Source: an uncultured Acidimicrobiaceae bacterium (GTDB taxonomy: Bacteria; Actinomycetota; Acidimicrobiia; Acidimicrobiales; Bog-793). From it: a stretch of 64,000 bases of DNA. A model generated the notes under the pieces. The model worked only from the letters and a program-made list of their open reading frames with translations, searched no databases and had not been told where the DNA came from. This document shows positions 9,254 through 51,084 of this stretch, piece by piece. The stretch is taken from the NCBI GenBank assembly GCA_963841155.1, contig CAWJBM010000002.1, positions 424,238 through 488,237 on the forward strand, read 5' to 3'. Numbering within the stretch: the first letter of the stretch is position 1; each line of letters opens with the position of its first letter. Made by a program: the position numbers and the translations under genes.

Positions 9254-9345
9254 GCTTAGGAGAGCCCCACACAGGACGCAGTGCCTGGAACTGGCGCTAT
9301 TCCTTCAAGGTCGTCACGTTCTGCGTGTGCTAATGTAGTGTCAGG

Positions 9346-9551
9346 CTATTGAGTATGCACTTGCTCGAGTGCGACACGTCCTCGTCTTACCTTCTCGAGA
9401 ATCGCGTCAGCGCTCGCTGTCCACACGAATGGTTTGGGGTCGTCGTTGTGGGCAGTGAGGTAGTCCTCGATCGCGGCGATGAGCTCGGGCACGCTTGCGA
9501 ACACGCCGCGACGGATGGCTTTGTCGGTGAGATCTCTGAACCACCGCTCGA
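9346..9551 (-). pseudogene. IS630-family transposase, C-terminal fragment
   Basis: Reverse translation gives (I)ERWFRDLTDKAIRRGVFASVPELIAAIEDYLTAHNDDPKPFVWTASADAILEKVRRGRVALEQVHTQ*. This is the typical IS630 C-terminus. The + strand ORF 9349..9555 in the track is its mirror artefact. Confidence 0.85.
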
Positions 9552-9563
9552 TTAACCGGCCCT
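9552..9563. repeat. Terminal inverted repeat (left) of the recombinase element
   Basis: TTAACCGGCCCT. The stop codon of the 661-aa recombinase (9563..9565) starts inside it. Confidence 0.85.
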
Positions 9564-11548
9564 CAGGGTTGTGTCAAGCACAAGTCTGTTGATCGGGCTT
9601 GATTTCTGAGCCGTCGGAGATGGCCGTCGATGCCGGCGACGACGCGTTCGTGGCGGGCGACTTCGGAGTTCCACCCGCGTGCTTGGGCGTCGTCGCGCAG
9701 GGTGTGAATGTCGGCAAGTTGGGCTTCGAGGACGGACTGAAACTCGGGGGCAGCGACGTAGTTGTCGCATTGTTCGCAGATGTTGGCGTAGGGGCAAGCG
9801 TCGGCGACGAGCTCGCGGGAGCAGTAACCGTGAGCGACGCGGGTCTTGAGCATCTCGGATCGGAGCCATTCGACTCGGTCGCTGGTGGTGCCGCGTCCGG
9901 TGGCGACGACGAAGAGTGGTTGGCGAGCGTGCACCTTCGTCATGGCCGCTTCGTAGGCGGCTCGAACGGTCGGTGACGCGAGCGACGCGTAGCGCAGGGT
10001 CATCTCGGCGGAAACGTGACCCATGAGGGCCATGAGCGCCTGTAGCGACATGCCGGCGTTGACGAGGCTGGTCCCATAGGTATGCCTGAGTTGGTGCGGG
10101 GTGACTCGAAGCGGTTGGCCGTCACGTCCGGTCAGCCCAGCGACGGCGATGGCCTGATCCAGGCCGTGGCGAAGCCGGAACGCCGATAGCCGCCGACCCT
10201 TTTCGACGAACAAGAAGTCGGCGGGTTGCCCGTGGCGGGGGTGGATCAACGCTCGTTGCGGCCCGCGTTGTGCCATCCAAGCGTCGAAATCGGCGAGAGT
10301 CGGCTCGTCGAGTGGCACGGTTCGCTCCGTGCCGAGCTTGCCCAAGGGGACCTTCACCCAGGTGCCCCGGTCACCGAAGTCCCAGAGGCAGTCGAGCTCG
10401 AGGTCGAGCAGCTCGCCGAGTCGCATCCCGGTGCCACGCAGGATGGCCAGACCGTGGCGTGCGAAGGGATCTGCGAGGCCAGCCACGGCGGCCATGAGAT
10501 CCCGGTCGACGTCGGGCGGAAGGGCTTTGGGCATGGGACGGTCGAGGCGTGGGATGTCGCTGGCGAAGACGAGTTGGCGGGTCGGGCGATCGGCCCACCC
10601 CCACACGGCCAGATCCTCGAAGAAGGCGCGCAGGTCGACCACCGTGCGTTTGGAAACTGACGCAGCCACCGGCTTGTCGCGGGCGAGCCAGCCGCGCCAA
10701 GGCCGGTGGTGGTTCCACACCAGGAACCCTTCGATGTGGGCCCGCTCGAGCTGCTCGAGCCGGCGTAGATCGGGATGGTGTGCCGCGAGGTACTCACCGA
10801 AGATGATCAGGCTGTCCGCTCTTAGCAGCACGGTCGAAGGGCGCAGGGTCGTGGCCACGACCTCCAGGTAGCGAAGGGCAACCTTGCGGATCTCTTCTTG
10901 GGGGAGAGCTTGGAGAGTCTCGGCGACGGTGGCTGCAGGCGGTCTGTTCTTGCGTGGGGTGTGGTGGCAGATCCGCAGCTCGTAGCAGGCCTGGTGGAGA
11001 CTGAACGCCCGGGCCTGGTTGTGCAGACGGGCGTCGCGCCGGGCCGAGGGAGTGTCAGCGAGAGCGGCGGTGAAGGTGTCGAAGACGTCGTCGGTCAGCT
11101 CGTCGAGATCGTTCCCCGACCACAGACACACCATCGCCAACGCGTTGGTGGCGACGTCGCGGGTCCAGTTGGCGCTCCAGGAGTAACGGCGGGCGATCTC
11201 GCTGACCCGGGCTACATCGTCGGCGTGGCGTTTTCCCCACTCGACATAGAGGTCACCGGGGGTCTTGGTCAGCAACAGGTCCAGGTCGGGAACGAGGATC
11301 TGTTCCAGGAAACACCAGGTGATGAACGACCACGCATGGCTGCGAGCCAGATCGGCGAGCCGGGCGCGTGTCGGCCTGGCCATCCACGCCTTGAGATCGG
11401 GATGGGCGTTAAGCAGATCGCAGGCCGCGTTTCGGCGATGGCGCTTGGCTTCGGCCCCGATGCTCAGTCCGGCGACAAACCGGGCGTAGTCGACAAGGAC
11501 GTCAGGAGCGCCGCTGGCCTCGAGGGCGGCCAGGGCCGTCGCGCTCAT
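9563..11548 (-). CDS. Large tyrosine recombinase (Tn554 TnpB-like in size and architecture)
   Basis: 661 aa. Catalytic region ...GMRLGELLDLELD ... VTPHQLRHTYGTSLVNAGMSLQALMALMGHVSAEMTLRYASL. Cys-rich C-terminal extension HGYCSRELVADACPYANICEQCDNYVAAPEF. Its ATG overlaps the upstream stop (ATGA at 11545-11548). Confidence 0.9.
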   Translation of the reverse strand: MSATALAALEASGAPDVLVDYARFVAGLSIGAEAKRHRRNAACDLLNAHPDLKAWMARPTRARLADLARSHAWSFITWCFLEQILVPDLDLLLTKTPGDLYVEWGKRHADDVARVSEIARRYSWSANWTRDVATNALAMVCLWSGNDLDELTDDVFDTFTAALADTPSARRDARLHNQARAFSLHQACYELRICHHTPRKNRPPAATVAETLQALPQEEIRKVALRYLEVVATTLRPSTVLLRADSLIIFGEYLAAHHPDLRRLEQLERAHIEGFLVWNHHRPWRGWLARDKPVAASVSKRTVVDLRAFFEDLAVWGWADRPTRQLVFASDIPRLDRPMPKALPPDVDRDLMAAVAGLADPFARHGLAILRGTGMRLGELLDLELDCLWDFGDRGTWVKVPLGKLGTERTVPLDEPTLADFDAWMAQRGPQRALIHPRHGQPADFLFVEKGRRLSAFRLRHGLDQAIAVAGLTGRDGQPLRVTPHQLRHTYGTSLVNAGMSLQALMALMGHVSAEMTLRYASLASPTVRAAYEAAMTKVHARQPLFVVATGRGTTSDRVEWLRSEMLKTRVAHGYCSRELVADACPYANICEQCDNYVAAPEFQSVLEAQLADIHTLRDDAQARGWNSEVARHERVVAGIDGHLRRLRNQARSTDLCLTQP

Positions 11549-12609
11549 CGGGTGACCGCCCGCGCCTTGGCGAACTCGGCAGCCAAGGTGTCTGACGACA
11601 GGTGCACATAGGCGGCGGTCGATTCCGGGGAGGCATGGCCCATTAGCTCGCGCAGCACCAGCAAGTCGATGCCGGCCGCCGCCAACTCAGTCCCATAGGT
11701 GTGGCGCAAGCGGTGCGGGCGGACTCTCGTCGAGCCGGACCGGGCCCGATGCGTGCGGAAGATGCGACGCATCCCCGCTTCAGTCAACGCCGATCCTCGT
11801 GTCGGTCCCCGCAGCACCACGAAACACTCCGGCGTGGCGCACCCCGGCGGACGTTCGGTCCGAAGGTAGTTGCCCAGCTCGGTGAAGAACACTCGATCGA
11901 CCGGGACCGTTCGTTCCTTGTTGCCCTTCCCGACCACTCGGACTCGGCGCATCCCCCGGTCCACGTCAGCCAGGCGCAACGAGCGGACCTCGGCTGCTCG
12001 CAGCCCGCCCACCAGCATCGCCAAGGCCATCGCCTTGTCCCGGCAGGTGCACAAGTCGGCGAGGAAAGCGGACACCTCGTCGGGTTCGAGACTCTCGGGA
12101 AGGCGGCGCGGCTGGCGGACCAGCCGGCCACCCGTCGGCGCCCGGCGCGTCCCGATATGGCCCAGCAGACCACGGCCCTTGGACCGCAACCCGGTCGAAC
12201 GCCGAGCCGCTGGCACCGGGTTGTCTTCTCGGACACCAGCGATCACCGCGTACTCGAACAACCCTCGCACCACGGCGATCCGTCGGTTCATCGTCGCCGG
12301 CGCCGCTCCGCGCCGGTCGGTCAGGCGCACCACCTTCTTGTTCCCGCTGCGCTTGGACCTCGCCTGCCAGTCCAAATAGTCGAACAAGTCGGTCGGCACT
12401 ACCTCAACGACGGTCAACCCCTGATCGCCGAGGAAGCGACCAAAGTTCAACAAGTCGAAGGCATACGCCCGCACGGTGGCCGGCGAGAACCCCCTAGCCT
12501 CGAGGTGCGTCAAGAAACTGTTCGCCATCTCGACATCAGTCCACGAACCCTCAAGACGATGCGAGCCCTCCAGGCGAACGACCGCCAGTGATCCGGCTGA
12601 CACCGTCAT
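11545..12609 (-). CDS. Tyrosine recombinase (XerC/D-sized, Tn554 TnpA-like in size)
   Basis: 354 aa. N-terminal SAM-like core-binding region (FLTHLEARGFSPATVRAYAFDLLNF) and a catalytic domain with GLRAAEVRSLRLADVD, VVGKGNKERTVPV and RPHRLRHTYGTELAAAGIDLLVLRELMGHASPESTAAYVHL. Confidence 0.9.
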   Translation of the reverse strand: MTVSAGSLAVVRLEGSHRLEGSWTDVEMANSFLTHLEARGFSPATVRAYAFDLLNFGRFLGDQGLTVVEVVPTDLFDYLDWQARSKRSGNKKVVRLTDRRGAAPATMNRRIAVVRGLFEYAVIAGVREDNPVPAARRSTGLRSKGRGLLGHIGTRRAPTGGRLVRQPRRLPESLEPDEVSAFLADLCTCRDKAMALAMLVGGLRAAEVRSLRLADVDRGMRRVRVVGKGNKERTVPVDRVFFTELGNYLRTERPPGCATPECFVVLRGPTRGSALTEAGMRRIFRTHRARSGSTRVRPHRLRHTYGTELAAAGIDLLVLRELMGHASPESTAAYVHLSSDTLAAEFAKARAVTR

Positions 12610-12839
12610 CGTGCATCACCGTCGACGCGCCGTTCGCCGTCGGTGACGCCAAGCAGGAACCCGAACCGGGACAGGTCCGCGCGTAGCTGATCGATGTCGT
12701 AGCCGTCGCTCCCGACGAACCGTCGCAACGAGTCGGCCAGTCGGCTGTGGTCACATACCAGCCACTCGCTGAGAAACTCCAACATTTCGCCGAGCTCGAC
12801 TGCGTCTCCTGGATCCAGACACACCTGCGGCACTGTCAT
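12606..12839 (-). CDS. Small acidic protein, first gene of the recombinase element (TnpC-analogous position unknown)
   Basis: 77 aa. It is translationally coupled to the next gene (ATGA at 12606-12609) and lies about 100 nt inside the right inverted repeat. I recognise no motif. Confidence 0.65.
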   Translation of the reverse strand: MTVPQVCLDPGDAVELGEMLEFLSEWLVCDHSRLADSLRRFVGSDGYDIDQLRADLSRFGFLLGVTDGERRVDGDAR

Positions 12840-12933
12840 GGCACACCTCCAGAATCGTCGCTCCAGGTCAGCATGAACCTGGACGCCTCCCGCTTGGTGG
12901 ACCGTCAGACCGCTACAGCCAGTCGAGCCACCC

Positions 12934-12945
12934 AGGGCCGGTTAA
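12934..12945. repeat. Terminal inverted repeat (right) of the recombinase element
   Basis: AGGGCCGGTTAA is the exact reverse complement of 9552..9563. Confidence 0.85.
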
Positions 12946-13837
12946 CCCATACGAGGTTCAACCACGAGCTCGAAGTCGGTGTGAAGTGCAGATGGAAGCG
13001 AGGGTTCGCGGCGAGCCAGTTGCGCACCTTCTCGTGGTTGTGCGTGCCGTAGTTGTCGACGATGAGATGCACGTCCAGGCCTCGAGGGACGTTGCGATTG
13101 ATGAGCTTCAAGAAGGCCAGGAACTCGCCGTGGCGATGCCGTGGCAGGCACTTGCCGATCACGACGCCGGTGAGCACGTTCAGCGCAGCGAACAGCGTCG
13201 TCGTCCCGTTGCGCTTGTAGTCATGGGTCATCGTCCCGGCTCGCCCCCGTTTCAAGGGAAGGCTGGGCTGAGTGCGGTCGAGTGCCTGAATCTGGGACTT
13301 CTCGTCGACCGAGAGGACAACGGCCTTGTCCGGGGGGTTGAGATAGAGCCCGACCACATCGCAGAGCTTCTCTTCAAAGGCCTTGTCGCCCGAGATCTTG
13401 AAGGTCTTTACGAGATGGGGCTTGATGCCCCGGGCCGACCAGATCCGTTGCACGGTGTCGTGCGACACGCCTGTCGCCCGGGCCATCGTCCGCGTCGACC
13501 AGTGCGTCTCGCCCACAGGTTTGCTGTGGAGCGTGAGATCGACGATCTCGGCAACTTTCTCCTCGGGGATCGTCGGCTTTCGCCCTCGGCCTGGTCGGAC
13601 TTTGCCGAAGTCCTCGAGACCACAGGTCTCAAAGCGTGCCCGCCAACCCAACACGGTGTTGCGCGAGACCTCGAGACGTTTCGCGATCTCGGAATTGGCG
13701 ACCCCGTCGGCGGCCATCAGCAAACCCTTGGCCTGTTGCACGTTTCGATGCTGCCGAGACGAAGAGCGTGAGATCTGCGCCAGCGTCTCGCGTTCTGCAG
13801 GGGTCATGACCAGCGCTGCGGCTGCACGGTTTGCCAT
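12946..13837 (-). pseudogene. IS630-family transposase, N-terminal fragment (HTH plus most of the DDE domain)
   Basis: The ORF 12905..13837 reads MANRAAAALVMTPAERETLAQI ... LSVDEKSQIQALDR ... HLIVDNYGTHNHEKVRNWLAANPRFHLHFTPTSSSWLNLV, then runs into foreign sequence (WVNRPWVARLAVAV*) at the insertion junction. Confidence 0.9.
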
Positions 13838-14144
13838 GCACGAAGGCTACCATATACGCGCGTTCATTTACCTGACACTACACTAGGAGGGGACGGCTCA
13901 TCGCTCGCCGCATCGGCTCCTGACTCTCCTGTGCTTGTCCCTGACGACGCAGGCGGAGGCACGTTCAGCAAGGCTACGTTGGGCAGACTGAGGATTTGCC
14001 GACGGGAACAGCCTGGGTCGACAACGACGAGCTCAAACCGAGTGAGAACTCCGACACTGCCACAGCGAGAAGCCAGCCAATAGATGCGGTAAGGAAGCCA
14101 CGACGAACATCACGATGGGGTGGCGGAGAGTCCGCGTCGGCGCT

Positions 14145-14516
14145 CTACCTGGCCGTGACCGACACGGGGAGGGGTTGGAGCCGGGTTACAAGTGACTTGT
14201 TGGCTGCCTGTGTCCACGCCTCGGTGAGCGGGACCGTGACGATCATCTTCCCGGTCGCGACGGCCTGGAACCAGTAGTCCTCAACCTCCAGACCGACGAA
14301 CATCCCGCGCTTCAGATGCACCGCACTGCTCGTCCAGACCCGGTCCCACCGAGCAGACACTGGAACCAGCGCCGACTGTTCGGGAACGCACGTCACTGTC
14401 GCGGTTGTCCTCAAGCCTGAAGTCCCGGTCGCGACCAGCACCGCAATGCCAGCACCGATGACAACGAGTATCGCCACGACGAAAACCACGATGGGATGGC
14501 GGACCGTGCGCATCAT
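14145..14516 (-). CDS. Small membrane-anchored protein
   Basis: 123 aa with one N-terminal TM helix (IVVFVVAILVVIGAGIAVLVA). Its start overlaps the stop of the upstream gene (ATGATG/TGA at 14513-14516). Confidence 0.55.
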   Translation of the reverse strand: MMRTVRHPIVVFVVAILVVIGAGIAVLVATGTSGLRTTATVTCVPEQSALVPVSARWDRVWTSSAVHLKRGMFVGLEVEDYWFQAVATGKMIVTVPLTEAWTQAANKSLVTRLQPLPVSVTAR

Positions 14517-27318: not shown

Positions 27319-28509
27319 TCAGGCCCTGAACACAAATGCCCGCCCGGCACGGCTGTCCTGGTCGTATGCACCCACGACAACGGTCGTGCCCGAGATGGCC
27401 ACGGAGTTGCCGAAGTTGTCGTTTGCGACAATGTCGGAGCCCTTCAGCTCTTGCGTCTCTTTCCAGCCGGACGCCGTCTTGGTGAACACGTACGCCCGAC
27501 CGGCAAGATTGCCGTGATCGTATGCACCCACCACAACGGTCGTGCCCGAGATCGACGCCGAGATGCCAAAGTAGTCGCCTGCGGTAGTGTCGGAGCCCTT
27601 CAGCTCGGCCGTCTCTCTCCAGACGCCCGCCGTCTCGGTGAACACGTACGCCCTGCCCGCAGAGTTGCCCTGGCCATATGCACCCACTACGGCCGCCGTG
27701 CCCGAGATGGCAACCGCGCTACCGAAAGTGTCGCCGGAGACGATGTCGGAGCCCTTCAGCACGGCGACTTGGTCCCAGCCGGTCGCAGTCCTGGTGAACA
27801 CGTACGCAGCGCCGGCACCCTTGGCGTGACCCTCCGCACTCACGACAACGGTCCTGCCCAAGACGGCCACAGAGGTGCCAAACCCATCCCTGGTGATGTT
27901 GCCGGAGCCCTTCAGCTCGGCGGCCTGTTCCCAGCCGGACGCCGTCTTGGTGAACACGTACGCCCTGCCCTCATAGTTGGCGTAGCCAGCGGCCCCCACC
28001 ACAGCAGTCATGCCTGAGACGGCCACCGACCAGCCGAACAAGTCGTCTGTGACAGTGTCGGAGCCCTTCAGCTCGGCGGCCTGCCTCCAGCCGGACGCCG
28101 TCTTGGTGAACACGTACGCCCGACCGGCATCCTTGGCGTGGTCGTATGCACCCACCACAACGGTCGTGCCCGAGATGGCCACCGAGCTGCCGAAGTCATC
28201 GCCGGGGTTGGTGTCGGAGCCCTCCAGCTCGGCGGCCTGTTTCCACCCGGAGGCTGTCTTGGTGAACACGTACGCCCGACCGGCGTAGCTGGTGCCTGAG
28301 GTACCCACGACGGCCGTCGTGCCCGAGACGGCCACGGAGGTGCCGAACTCGTCGCTGGCGACGGTATCGGAGCCCTTCAGCTCGGCCAGCTGCTTTCCAG
28401 TCGCCGGGCCGGTACGCGGAGCCGTCGTGCTGCAGCCCGCCAGGAGGGGCAGGGAGATCGCGCCAACCGTGAGGAGCCCAGACAGGCTGGCCGTCAGGGA
28501 CTTGCGCAT
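27319..28509 (-). CDS. Lipoprotein with seven FG-GAP-like repeats (predicted 7-bladed beta-propeller)
   Basis: 396 aa. Signal plus lipobox LPLLAGCS. Seven units of about 51 aa follow the pattern ELKGSDT..D.FG.SVAISGTTVVVGAY.....GRAYVFTKTASGW. Confidence 0.85.
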   Translation of the reverse strand: MRKSLTASLSGLLTVGAISLPLLAGCSTTAPRTGPATGKQLAELKGSDTVASDEFGTSVAVSGTTAVVGTSGTSYAGRAYVFTKTASGWKQAAELEGSDTNPGDDFGSSVAISGTTVVVGAYDHAKDAGRAYVFTKTASGWRQAAELKGSDTVTDDLFGWSVAVSGMTAVVGAAGYANYEGRAYVFTKTASGWEQAAELKGSGNITRDGFGTSVAVLGRTVVVSAEGHAKGAGAAYVFTRTATGWDQVAVLKGSDIVSGDTFGSAVAISGTAAVVGAYGQGNSAGRAYVFTETAGVWRETAELKGSDTTAGDYFGISASISGTTVVVGAYDHGNLAGRAYVFTKTASGWKETQELKGSDIVANDNFGNSVAISGTTVVVGAYDQDSRAGRAFVFRA

Positions 28510-49689: not shown

Positions 49690-51084
49690 TCAACCCGTCG
49701 AACACAGATTGACGTGCTTGACATTCAGGATGTGGGTCACCGCGCTCACGAGCCTGCTCCGGGCGAGCTTGCCCGCGTCCACGGCGGCGATCACCGCAGC
49801 AACGGTCTGGTTCGTGAGCGACGCCACCGCCGTCGGATCGGCACCGTAAAGCACCATGTCTGCGCCTGCCTGTATCGCCGCCACCGTGGCCTTGGGGACC
49901 GAGTACCCGATCGCGCTGAGCGCTACCGCCGAGAGCGAGTCTGTGATGACCAGGCCTTGGTAGCCGAGCTGATCGCGAAGCAATCCTGAGATGACAACGG
50001 GAGAGATGCTCGCGGGGAGGTCGGTCAGCCCGGGAATCGTGGCGTTCGCGATCATCACCGCGGGAACGTGCGCGTCGATCGCATCATCGAAAGGAACTAG
50101 CCCGACGCGCTTGAGCTTGCTCCACGGCGGCGTGGAAGCGGGCATCACGTCGGTGTTGCCTGTGGCGCCACCAAGCCCGGGGAAGTGTTTGACCACCGGC
50201 ACGATCCCGCCTGCCTGAAGGCCGGCCTCGAACGCGAGCCCGTCCGTGGCCGCGATCTTCTCCTGCGCGCTGAAGGACCTCGTGCCGTCCGGGTCGCGGT
50301 CGTCGGGCCCTTGCCCGCCGTCCACGTCGAGCACCGGAGCGAGGTCCATCGTCACGCCCGCTGCGAGCATGCGCCGAGCGAGGCCGGCAGCCAACTGTCT
50401 GATCTGAGCCGGCGTCATGGTCGCACCCATCTGCCTCGCCGAGGGGATCGACCCGACCAGGTTCGCCATCCGCTGGACCGCGCCTCCCTCCTCGTCGGTC
50501 ATCACAAATGGCGCCACGCCGTTCGGAGCCGAAGCGACAAGGCTCTGCAGGGCCACGCCGAGATTTGAAGGAGCGGACGCTCCGAAGAGGATCACTCCGC
50601 CTGCGCCTGCGGCAACCTCCGAGGTCACCGACGTGACGTCGCTCTCATCGACGGGAACGACGACGGTTTGCTCTGCGAGGCTTTGCAGGCTCCATGTGGC
50701 AAGAACGCCCGCTGTCGAGCAGGCGAGCGTCGTCGTGGTGGTTGTCGCGGGCGTCGTGGTGGTTGTCGCGGGCGTCGTGGTGGTTGTCGCCGGCGTCGTG
50801 GTGGTTGTCGCCGGCGTCGTGGTGGTTGTCGCCGGCGTCGTGGTGGTTGTCGCCGGCGTCGTGGTGGTTGTCGCCGGCGTCGTGGTGGTTGTCACCGGCG
50901 TCGTGGTGGTTGTCGCCGGCGTGCCTGTCGTGCCGGTCGTGGTTGACAGGGTGGCTGTCGACGCGCACCCGGACACGAACGAAGCGACCAGCGTGATCGC
51001 GATCCCGGTCGCCACACCCGTGAGGAAGTGAGAATTGAGGCGATGTGATGAACGTGACCAGAGGGCCGAGACGCGGTGTGCCAC
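49690..51084 (-). CDS. Glycoside hydrolase family 3 lipoprotein (NagZ/LpqI-like beta-N-acetylhexosaminidase) with a Thr/Pro repeat linker
   Basis: Lipobox LVASFVSGCAS, then nine TTPATTT-type heptads, then the GH3 N-domain (VMTDEEGGAVQR, KHFPGLGGATGNTD, VMIANA, VITDSL). The start is uncertain: GTG 51084 is preferred and the track ORF starts at 51186. Confidence 0.85.
   Translation of the reverse strand: MAHRVSALWSRSSHRLNSHFLTGVATGIAITLVASFVSGCASTATLSTTTGTTGTPATTTTTPVTTTTTPATTTTTPATTTTTPATTTTTPATTTTTPATTTTTPATTTTTPATTTTTTLACSTAGVLATWSLQSLAEQTVVVPVDESDVTSVTSEVAAGAGGVILFGASAPSNLGVALQSLVASAPNGVAPFVMTDEEGGAVQRMANLVGSIPSARQMGATMTPAQIRQLAAGLARRMLAAGVTMDLAPVLDVDGGQGPDDRDPDGTRSFSAQEKIAATDGLAFEAGLQAGGIVPVVKHFPGLGGATGNTDVMPASTPPWSKLKRVGLVPFDDAIDAHVPAVMIANATIPGLTDLPASISPVVISGLLRDQLGYQGLVITDSLSAVALSAIGYSVPKATVAAIQAGADMVLYGADPTAVASLTNQTVAAVIAAVDAGKLARSRLVSAVTHILNVKHVNLCSTG
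50731..50919. repeat. 21-bp tandem repeat, 9 copies (CGTCGTGGTGGTTGTCGCSGG), coding for the Thr/Pro linker
   Basis: Counted directly, with copies starting at 50731, 50752, 50773 ... 50899. Only a few single-nt variants, all in frame with the GH3 gene. Confidence 0.95.

Follow-up and report, generated by a model that had tools for sequence, protein, structure and literature searches.

Positions 9552–12951 of the DNA analysed here, a 64,000-nucleotide stretch from an uncultured Acidimicrobiaceae bacterium (contig CAWJBM010000002.1, positions 424,238 to 488,237 of the forward strand; referred to below as the window), are an intact copy of a minimal, cargo-free transposon that encodes two tyrosine recombinases, homologues of TnpA and TnpB of Tn554, and no TnpC. 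The element interrupts the transposase gene of an insertion sequence (IS) of the IS630 family and, as read from the flanks of its relatives, the preferred target of these transposons is the transposase gene of another IS and not a host gene. What the element is, where it begins and ends, and that it targets transposase genes are, taken jointly, claims in which we have high confidence; movement by the two recombinases, with excision of the element, is predicted.

The host IS630 is readily recognised on both sides of the element. It spans about 9334–13883, with its own inverted repeats and TA flanks, and its product (NCBIfam IS630 transposase, E 3.6e-70 for the 5' part) is split as ...SSSWLNLV|ERWFRDL..., the bar marking the insertion here and in the motifs below. 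When the two window halves are joined, the best match of the rebuilt, uninterrupted transposase is a 363-amino-acid (aa) protein, P0121, that is 99% identical and is encoded on a metagenome contig, L084, with an intact copy of the same IS630. Free of the insert this IS is ~1151 bp long, with repeats GTGTAGTGTCAGG and TA on both sides, and it is found in four unrelated contexts (the window, L084, and two further loci, L004 and L025), three of which carry the element. The border and host features in the window are:

9334–9551, minus strand: 3' part of the host IS630, comprising the last 67 transposase codons (ERWFRDLTDK...) and the terminal repeat CCTGACACTACA at 9334–9345, then TA; 99.6% identical to L084 1009–1231.
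9546–9551, minus strand: target-derived hexamer TCGAGC (element orientation) beside the right end; identical to the empty site in L084.
9552–9563, no strand: right-end inverted repeat, AGGGCCGGTTAA in element orientation; the end GCCGGTTAAT is kept in most related loci.
12896–12911, minus strand: subterminal motif GGTCTGACGGTCCACC in the left end; family consensus about CCTGAGGGTCCAC, resembling CTGAGGGCC, which adjoins the right-end repeat in the same orientation.
12934–12945, no strand: left-end inverted repeat, TTAACCGGCCCT in element orientation.
12946–12951, minus strand: element-borne 6-bp spacer TATGGG (element orientation); not in the empty site, moves with the element.
12952–13883, minus strand: 5' part of the host IS630, comprising transposase codons 1–296 to ...SSSWLNL(V) and the terminal repeat GTGTAGTGTCAGG at 13871–13883, preceded by TA; 98.2% identical to L084 70–1009.

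Comparison with L084 defines the mobile unit as 3400 bp (9552–12951), made up of 3394 bp from repeat to repeat and the 6 bp TATGGG on the gene-start (left-end) side. The empty site reads ...TGGTTGAACCTCG TCGAGC GGTGGTTCAG... (AACCTCG-TCGAGC-GGTGG); in the window the left junction is ...AACCTCG TATGGG TTAACCGG..., with TTAACCGGCCCT as the start of the left end, and the right junction is ...CCGGTTAA TCGAGC GGTGG... (also written GGTTAA-TCGAGC-GGTGG), with AGGGCCGGTTAA as the tip. No target bases are duplicated and none are lost relative to L084, and the single ambiguity at the border is one T, the first base of TATGGG, which is common to element and target and is unassignable. A preliminary description of this DNA had proposed a discrete unit with perfect 12-bp inverted repeats that had inserted into another IS, and this is borne out on both counts: the 12-mer TTAACCGGCCCT has two exact copies in the window, at 9552–9563 (plus strand) and 12934–12945 (minus strand), where ~0.10 are expected by chance, and an IS630 copy 98–99.6% identical to the window's is empty at the exact point of insertion. 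The subterminal motif comes from the left and right ends of ~45 elements set side by side and compared by eye; it is a candidate extra recombinase-binding site that may render the two ends unequal.

The ends are a property of a large family. A search with the large recombinase gave over 1900 homologues, the majority on contigs of 3.1–4.5 kb, as is typical of a repeat that breaks assemblies, and a scan of one genome per species gave 80 loci, mostly in Acidimicrobiia and other Actinomycetota. Copies are also present on plasmids of Rhodococcus and Mycobacterium, and the element is multicopy within genomes. The ends GTTAACCGGC...GCCGGTTAAT were recognisable in most of the 80 loci, each with no more than one mismatch, in relatives with as little as 47% protein identity, from which we conclude that the repeats are functional and not accidental. 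The preliminary description had named coincidental repeats and a larger island among the outcomes that would undo it; further copies, with their ends compared, speak against the first, and the empty site and outer flanks against the second. A reading in which the recombinase pair is part of a larger island, or of an element of the RIT, SE or GInt type with the 12-bp repeats incidental, can draw on the several element classes whose tyrosine recombinase genes are neighbours and overlap by 4 bp (PMC10214605), but the empty site fixes the borders to within 1 bp, the ends are conserved family-wide, the sequence beyond the IS630 is unrelated between copies, and there are two recombinases only and no RIT trio. 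Moreover, SE and GInt elements have four core genes that include the non-catalytic Tfp/GinC and Srap/GinD, and on a comparison by description, the SE proteins themselves not being compared by sequence, no counterpart of tfp/srap or ginC/ginD turned up among the genes of the element and none of the four-gene core is present. This reading is thereby refuted, and we give it practically no weight.

The interior of the element is filled by three minus-strand genes:

9563–11548, minus strand: large tyrosine recombinase, 661 aa, TnpB(Tn554)-like; PF00589; C-terminal Cys cluster.
11545–12609, minus strand: short tyrosine recombinase, 354 aa, TnpA(Tn554)-like; PF00589.
12606–12839, minus strand: small acidic open reading frame (ORF), 77 aa, translationally coupled to the short recombinase gene; 16 D/E against 8 K/R.

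The three ORFs, their ATGA overlaps at 12606–12609 and 11545–11548, the acidic character of the smallest and the absence of cargo are all as the preliminary description gave them. No ORF follows the large recombinase gene, whose stop codon abuts the right end; the stop codon had been placed within the repeat there, and the overlap exists but extends to a single base (9563). The catalytic residues of the 661-aa recombinase (R376, K404, H485, R488, H511 and Y520) are invariant, and those of the 354-aa recombinase (R204, K228, H299, R302, H325 and Y334) are each present in at least 97% of 73 relatives.

The resemblance to Tn554 that had earlier been suggested from protein sizes is a true homology. 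The short recombinase matches TnpA of a Listeria Tn554-type element with 26% identity over 341 aa, i.e. its full length (E 2e-32), and the long recombinase matches the TnpB of that element type with 24% identity over 443 aa (residues 200–636; E 6e-40); Tn554-type matches in Enterococcus, Staphylococcus and Listeria cover 66–69% of the long recombinase. The Cys-rich tail of the 661-aa protein, CPYANICEQCDNY, aligns with the Cys tail of the Listeria Tn554-type TnpB (GYC...CP.AN.C..C.N).

The 77-aa ORF, which lies upstream of the recombinase genes and not after tnpB as TnpC does in the Tn554 family, is unlike TnpC, with no similarity by BLASTP and no DUF6262 match in Pfam, and no family was found for it either in Pfam above cut-off (DUF3572 scores 17.6 bits against a cut-off of 25) or in NCBIfam. 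Its homologues form 56 clusters, nearly all 77 aa long, and occur only in the 3.37–3.40-kb variants of two separate clades, in some sublineages and not all. An AlphaFold model has three helices at modest confidence (pLDDT 69), and a Foldseek comparison of this model with the PDB gave no fold match (best E 5.8). It is thus a real, conserved but accessory gene, and our guess is that the protein is an accessory or regulatory factor. It is not a feature of the family as a whole: most relatives are ~3.13 kb in size and have the two recombinase genes only.

The flanks of 52 loci in which both ends were located, a subset of the 80, were classified for the target:

IS630-family genes at SW[LMI]N.[VI]|E..F: 18 of 52 loci, orientation always that of the transposase gene; the clade of the window element.
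IS256-family genes at NP[IL]|E[RS], e.g. WSNNPI|ERLNKEIKRR: ~19 of 52 loci, orientation always that of the transposase gene; a sister clade.
IS256-family genes at C.VH..|RN: 10 of 52 loci, either orientation.
ISL3 genes: 3 of 52 loci, mixed orientation.
Not classifiable: 2 of 52 loci (L032 and L047).

The glutamate that follows the insertion point in the IS630 motif and in the NP[IL]|E motif of IS256 is one that we take to be the third residue of the DDE catalytic triad, and C..H is a hallmark of the Mutator/IS256 transposases. Target hexamers at the C.VH..|RN site are often the palindrome TGCGCA, a symmetry that may account for insertion in either orientation there. A DNA core, AACC-NNN-T-N-GAG, is common to the IS630 and the NP[IL]|E targets, and the IS630 target site, ~38 bp long, reads TCGTGGTTGAACCTCG-TCGAGC-GGTGGTTCAGAGATCT. 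An inverted repeat in this site, TGAACC...GGTTCA, was noted and set aside; it derives from the W-L-N and W-F codons, and its orientation is opposite to that of the element arms.

Removal of the element in silico and joining of the flanks restores transposase-sized ORFs. Ten joined ORFs were compared with Pfam: four match Transposase_mut (three of them over nearly the whole model), three match DDE_3 (alone or with helix-turn-helix domains), one has ISL3 domains, one matches ParB_N, and one (L076) has no match; eight of the ten therefore match DDE_3, Transposase_mut or DDE_Tnp_ISL3. Two loci, L076 and L081, were candidates for targets other than transposases and were rejected as such, as in the reverse frame both have, judged by eye, the ISL3 hallmarks ADPFHVV..AN..LD..RRR. 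The Rhodococcus plasmid copies, which come from cultured strains, lie in IS256 genes at the NP[IL]|E[RS]-type site. Cultured carriers of intact copies include Rhodococcus sp. LW-XY12, in which three plasmids have the element, R. rhodochrous GD02 and R. ruber Y14.

The constant position within IS630 genes might reflect common descent, i.e. a single entry into an IS630 ancestor after which the element was carried as a passive passenger. The window, L004 and L025 share the composite of IS630 and element at 98% identity (the L004 copy being separate from that of the window, with other flanks), and in each it has intact IS630 repeats, TA and unrelated surroundings, as mobilisation in trans by an intact IS630 transposase would give. 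Against this stand the near-identical IS630 copy that is empty at the exact point and a fourth locus, L005, in which the element is 97% identical to that of the window yet the IS630 on its left flank is only 44% identical in protein. Nor does the target class track one IS lineage; it follows the recombinase tree, with sister clades in IS256 and ISL3 genes and cousins in IS3 genes. In addition, three loci fetched after the target rule had been set all obey it (3/3), and they are carried by IS630 members unlike that of the window. The empty IS630, the L005 locus and the use of four IS families favour repeated site-specific insertion over one ancestral event, and we consider a single entry to be very improbable.

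A further alternative is that the element has been domesticated as an excisable intervening sequence, an on/off switch of the IS630 transposase that is kept for restraining the IS. Given that nothing is duplicated or lost on insertion, a reversal would restore the reading frame exactly, and the shared orientation of element and gene at the IS630 and NP[IL]|E sites is also in keeping with such a role. However, members of the family number in the thousands and are spread over many IS families and phyla, genomes carry multiple copies, which often break assemblies into element-sized contigs, and many copies are decayed (e.g. by a frameshift in the large recombinase gene in L025, or to a solo end remnant), a pattern expected of a selfish repeat. 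We regard the switch as improbable, and such a role would in any case not exclude a transposon mechanism; repeated, site-specific transposition into transposase genes is the reading adopted in what follows.

Several loci illustrate how these elements decay and become stacked. L025, from the same metagenome-assembled genome that holds L004, has, besides the full copy with its frameshifted large recombinase gene, a second IS630 copy at 13899–14232 in which a truncated transposase gene is joined to the final 112 bp of the right end, all that is left of the element there; this copy is a deletion derivative. At L023 (2757–7086) the element reaches 4330 bp through an intact IS630 nested within it, and the flanks on its two sides belong to different IS630 subtypes; at L005 (2797–6248) the left flank is the distant IS630 and the right flank is identical to that of the window over 57 nt, beyond which it is unrelated. 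Both loci resemble products of recombination between copies of the element in different ISs. L093 (1–1091) has a group II intron reverse transcriptase (RVT_1 and GIIM) directly upstream of a truncated IS630 that carries the element, such that three kinds of mobile element are stacked.

We propose that excision by the two recombinases would turn the element into a circle, at whose junction two inverted 12-bp arms would surround a 6-bp spacer (AGGGCCGGTTAA-TATGGG-TTAACCGGCCCT), a classic core-site layout, and that this circle would then recombine with a specific site in a transposase gene. Insertion would disable the host IS, which would keep its intact ends and could move in trans and take the element along. 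On one metagenome contig, L088, the order is tnpB C-terminus ...GAGGGCCGGTTAA-TGTCGG-TTAACCGGCCCT... tnpA ... tnpB N-terminus, i.e. a right-end/6-bp/left-end junction, which is the layout expected of an excised circle or of a head-to-tail (tandem) dimer. Four of the five metagenome hits to the junction pattern were discarded as unrelated palindromic hairpins, and no additional end-to-end junction came from a search of viral contigs. We consider a circular intermediate somewhat more likely than not.

The hexamers at the two junctions behave differently. The one beside the left end is kept by clade at unrelated sites (TATGGG, TATCGG, TCTCCG or TCCCCG) and is unlike the target hexamers; the element spacer is always beside the left end, and the six bases of the target are always beside the right end. 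Any base other than T that follows the right-end TTAA stays with the element in the loci compared, which places the apparent crossover between hexamer positions 1 and 2. Element and target share one base (T) at the crossover and mismatch at five of the six positions, and by eye no similarity between circle junction and target was seen beyond this one T.

Joining of the ends would also create a promoter, for which the right end carries half of the signal:

9572–9577, minus strand: outward-facing TTGACA, a candidate -35 element, 16 nt before the terminal TTAA and 17 nt before a TAATAT that is formed only when the right end is joined to the spacer and left end.

TTGAC[AC] lies at a fixed distance from the right-end tip in most family members. 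Right end, spacer and left end together give TTGACA-N17-TAATAT, which is absent from the integrated form, and a scan of the integrated window element for consensus promoters found no promoter-like site. Under the same scan criteria such a site is recognised in 24 of 44 distinct reconstructed circle junctions and in 0 of 44 integrated right junctions. IS911, IS2 and IS30 have junction promoters in their circular intermediates, with a -35 in one end and a -10 completed by joining, such that strong expression comes from the circle alone; those are DDE ISs, whereas here the promoter is a predicted one. It would drive the recombinase operon only from the circle, and would also explain the conservation of the hexamer. 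We put the chance that the junction is such a promoter at about even.

A number of points weigh against this overall picture. Excision, circle and promoter are read from sequence only. The end-to-end junction was seen in 1 contig among 241 million metagenome records and may be a tandem dimer, and 20 of the 44 circle junctions fail the promoter scan, including the whole clade at C.VH..|RN, whose junction hexamer would read TAATCT. Movement of the composite by IS630 transposase in trans is also plausible, such that some of the spread may be IS630 transposition. One unclassified locus, L032, appears to lie in a ParB-like ORF, although its ends are doubtful. Finally, when only a single base is shared, strands exchanged by ordinary tyrosine recombination would be mismatched, and target bases should lie beside the left end in half of the new copies; these are seen in 0 of ~50 copies. 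As judged from these junctions, strand exchange must be strand-biased or otherwise unusual, unlike textbook tyrosine recombination. In this it is reminiscent of Tn554 and of the SE elements, whose outcome is strand-biased (PMC10214605).

The enzyme pair itself is not new. Van Houdt et al. (2012) described, as a class, Tn554-related elements of Actinobacteria in which an abnormally long recombinase (611–828 aa) is paired with one of ~350 aa in adjacent, co-oriented genes; they occur on plasmids and chromosomes, are multicopy and in some cases lack TnpC, and their ends, sizes and target sites were not given (PMC3414803). The element belongs to the wider Tn554 group and to this class, and the suggestion in the preliminary description of an undescribed transposon type has to give way, as far as the recombinase pair is concerned, to the naming of the class in 2012. 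The window element shares with it the adjacent, co-oriented long (>600 aa) and ~350-aa recombinases, the actinobacterial hosts and the multicopy state, but 35 plasmid records match at E<=1e-60 and none of them is a plasmid listed for the TnpC-less group of that class (pRHL2, pSCP1, pNOCA01 and others), and its pBD2 element, which did match, is of the TnpC type and 37% identical. The lineage of the window element is thus probably not one of the three clusters of Van Houdt et al. The name Tn5714, linked with Streptomyces SCP1, was also considered and dropped; in the only paper located it stands for an unrelated transposase of 232 aa. Apparently undescribed are the conserved ends, the 6-bp spacer and the consistent choice of transposase genes as targets, as no description of them for this family was found in the full texts searched, which include few subscription journals.

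With Tn554 of Staphylococcus and Enterococcus (and Tn6674 and Tn553) the element shares a short TnpA-type and a long TnpB-type recombinase in the same order, the TnpB Cys tail, and site-specific insertion without target duplication and with a 6-bp unit at the junctions (for Tn554, PMC10214605). It differs in having no TnpC/DUF6262 gene, in its perfect 12-bp terminal inverted repeats, in the absence of cargo and in its family size of 3.1–3.4 kb. The transfer of six bases from the donor flank to the opposite junction is not seen here either; the left hexamer is conserved by clade and the right hexamer is the local target. The targets differ too: att554, the target of Tn554 itself, lies in radC, and that of the present element in a transposase gene. 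A functional analogy exists with the 'res hunters' Tn5053/Tn402, transposons that target the resolution sites of other mobile elements and thus also prefer a conserved site in another mobile element; it goes no further than function, as their enzymes are DDE TniA/B/Q and their target is a resolution site and not a coding sequence.

TnpC-carrying cousins are found on Rhodococcus erythropolis pBD2 (L091, 1651–5064) and Mycolicibacterium gilvum pMSPYR101 (L092). They have the order TnpA-TnpB-TnpC(DUF6262) with 35–38% identity, their ends are TTGACCGGCTAATC/GATTAGCCGGTCAA, and they interrupt IS3-family OrfB at GRVGA|ALDNGLMES. The flanking hexamers of L091, TGCCTG and GCCCTC, are near-copies of each other, unlike those of the window's family.

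RIT elements are likewise compact, bounded by inverted repeats and free of cargo, with overlapping recombinase genes, but they have three recombinases of 315–410 aa and 34-bp repeats (PMC10214605), against two here, one of them 661 aa, and a third ORF of 77 aa without an integrase domain. SE elements have imperfect terminal inverted repeats that are separated by a 6-bp spacer in the circle, an arrangement that L088, as a circle or a tandem dimer, may reproduce, and they have in common with the present family target specificity, a strand-biased outcome and coupled genes (for SE, PMC10214605). They differ in needing four genes (intA, tfp, intB and srap), against three in the window copy and two in most members of the family, in carrying cargo, and in that their 6-bp footprint shifts from the left flank of the donor to the new right junction, whereas here the hexamer stays at the left end. 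One SE insertion has been reported in insJ of IS3, the nearest precedent for a transposase target (PMC10214605).

Two tandem arrays elsewhere in the window were also recorded. At 27327–28406 there are ~6–7 tandem copies of a 156-nt unit, 61–78% identical to a reference copy, which may encode a repeat protein. At 50686–50964 there are ~13 copies of a 21-nt unit (GGCGTCGTGGTGGTTGTCGCC), nearly perfect in the centre of the array.

The most far-reaching reading of these observations is that Actinomycetota and some neighbouring phyla harbour an extensive and so far unrecognised guild of transposons that are moved by tyrosine recombinases and depend on other transposons as their habitat, with lineage-specific recognition of DDE-transposase motifs, exact and footprint-free knock-out insertion, a promoter present only in the circle, a switch between IS families by way of AACC-N3-T-N-GAG, and strand-biased exchange; our confidence in this whole is only slightly above even. 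If it is true, IS630 and IS256 would be hit around the codon of the catalytic glutamate, IS256 also at C.VH, and ISL3 and IS3 at other conserved sites.

Ends, size and target rules are now available for a family of thousands that appears in databases only as 'tyrosine-type recombinase/integrase', and would improve annotation; the elements, and the transposase genes that they split, also fragment metagenome assemblies. Dozens of natural target/recombinase pairs, a ~38-bp site and footprint-free insertion could serve to study target choice and exchange across non-identical spacers, a matter still open for Tn554 itself (PMC10214605). For the biology of these bacteria, a transposon specialised on the catalytic-site codons of transposases would be a clean case in bacteria of a parasite of parasites, in which the most conserved and most widely transferred DNA is used as a safe landing site, and the family may limit IS activity in its hosts.

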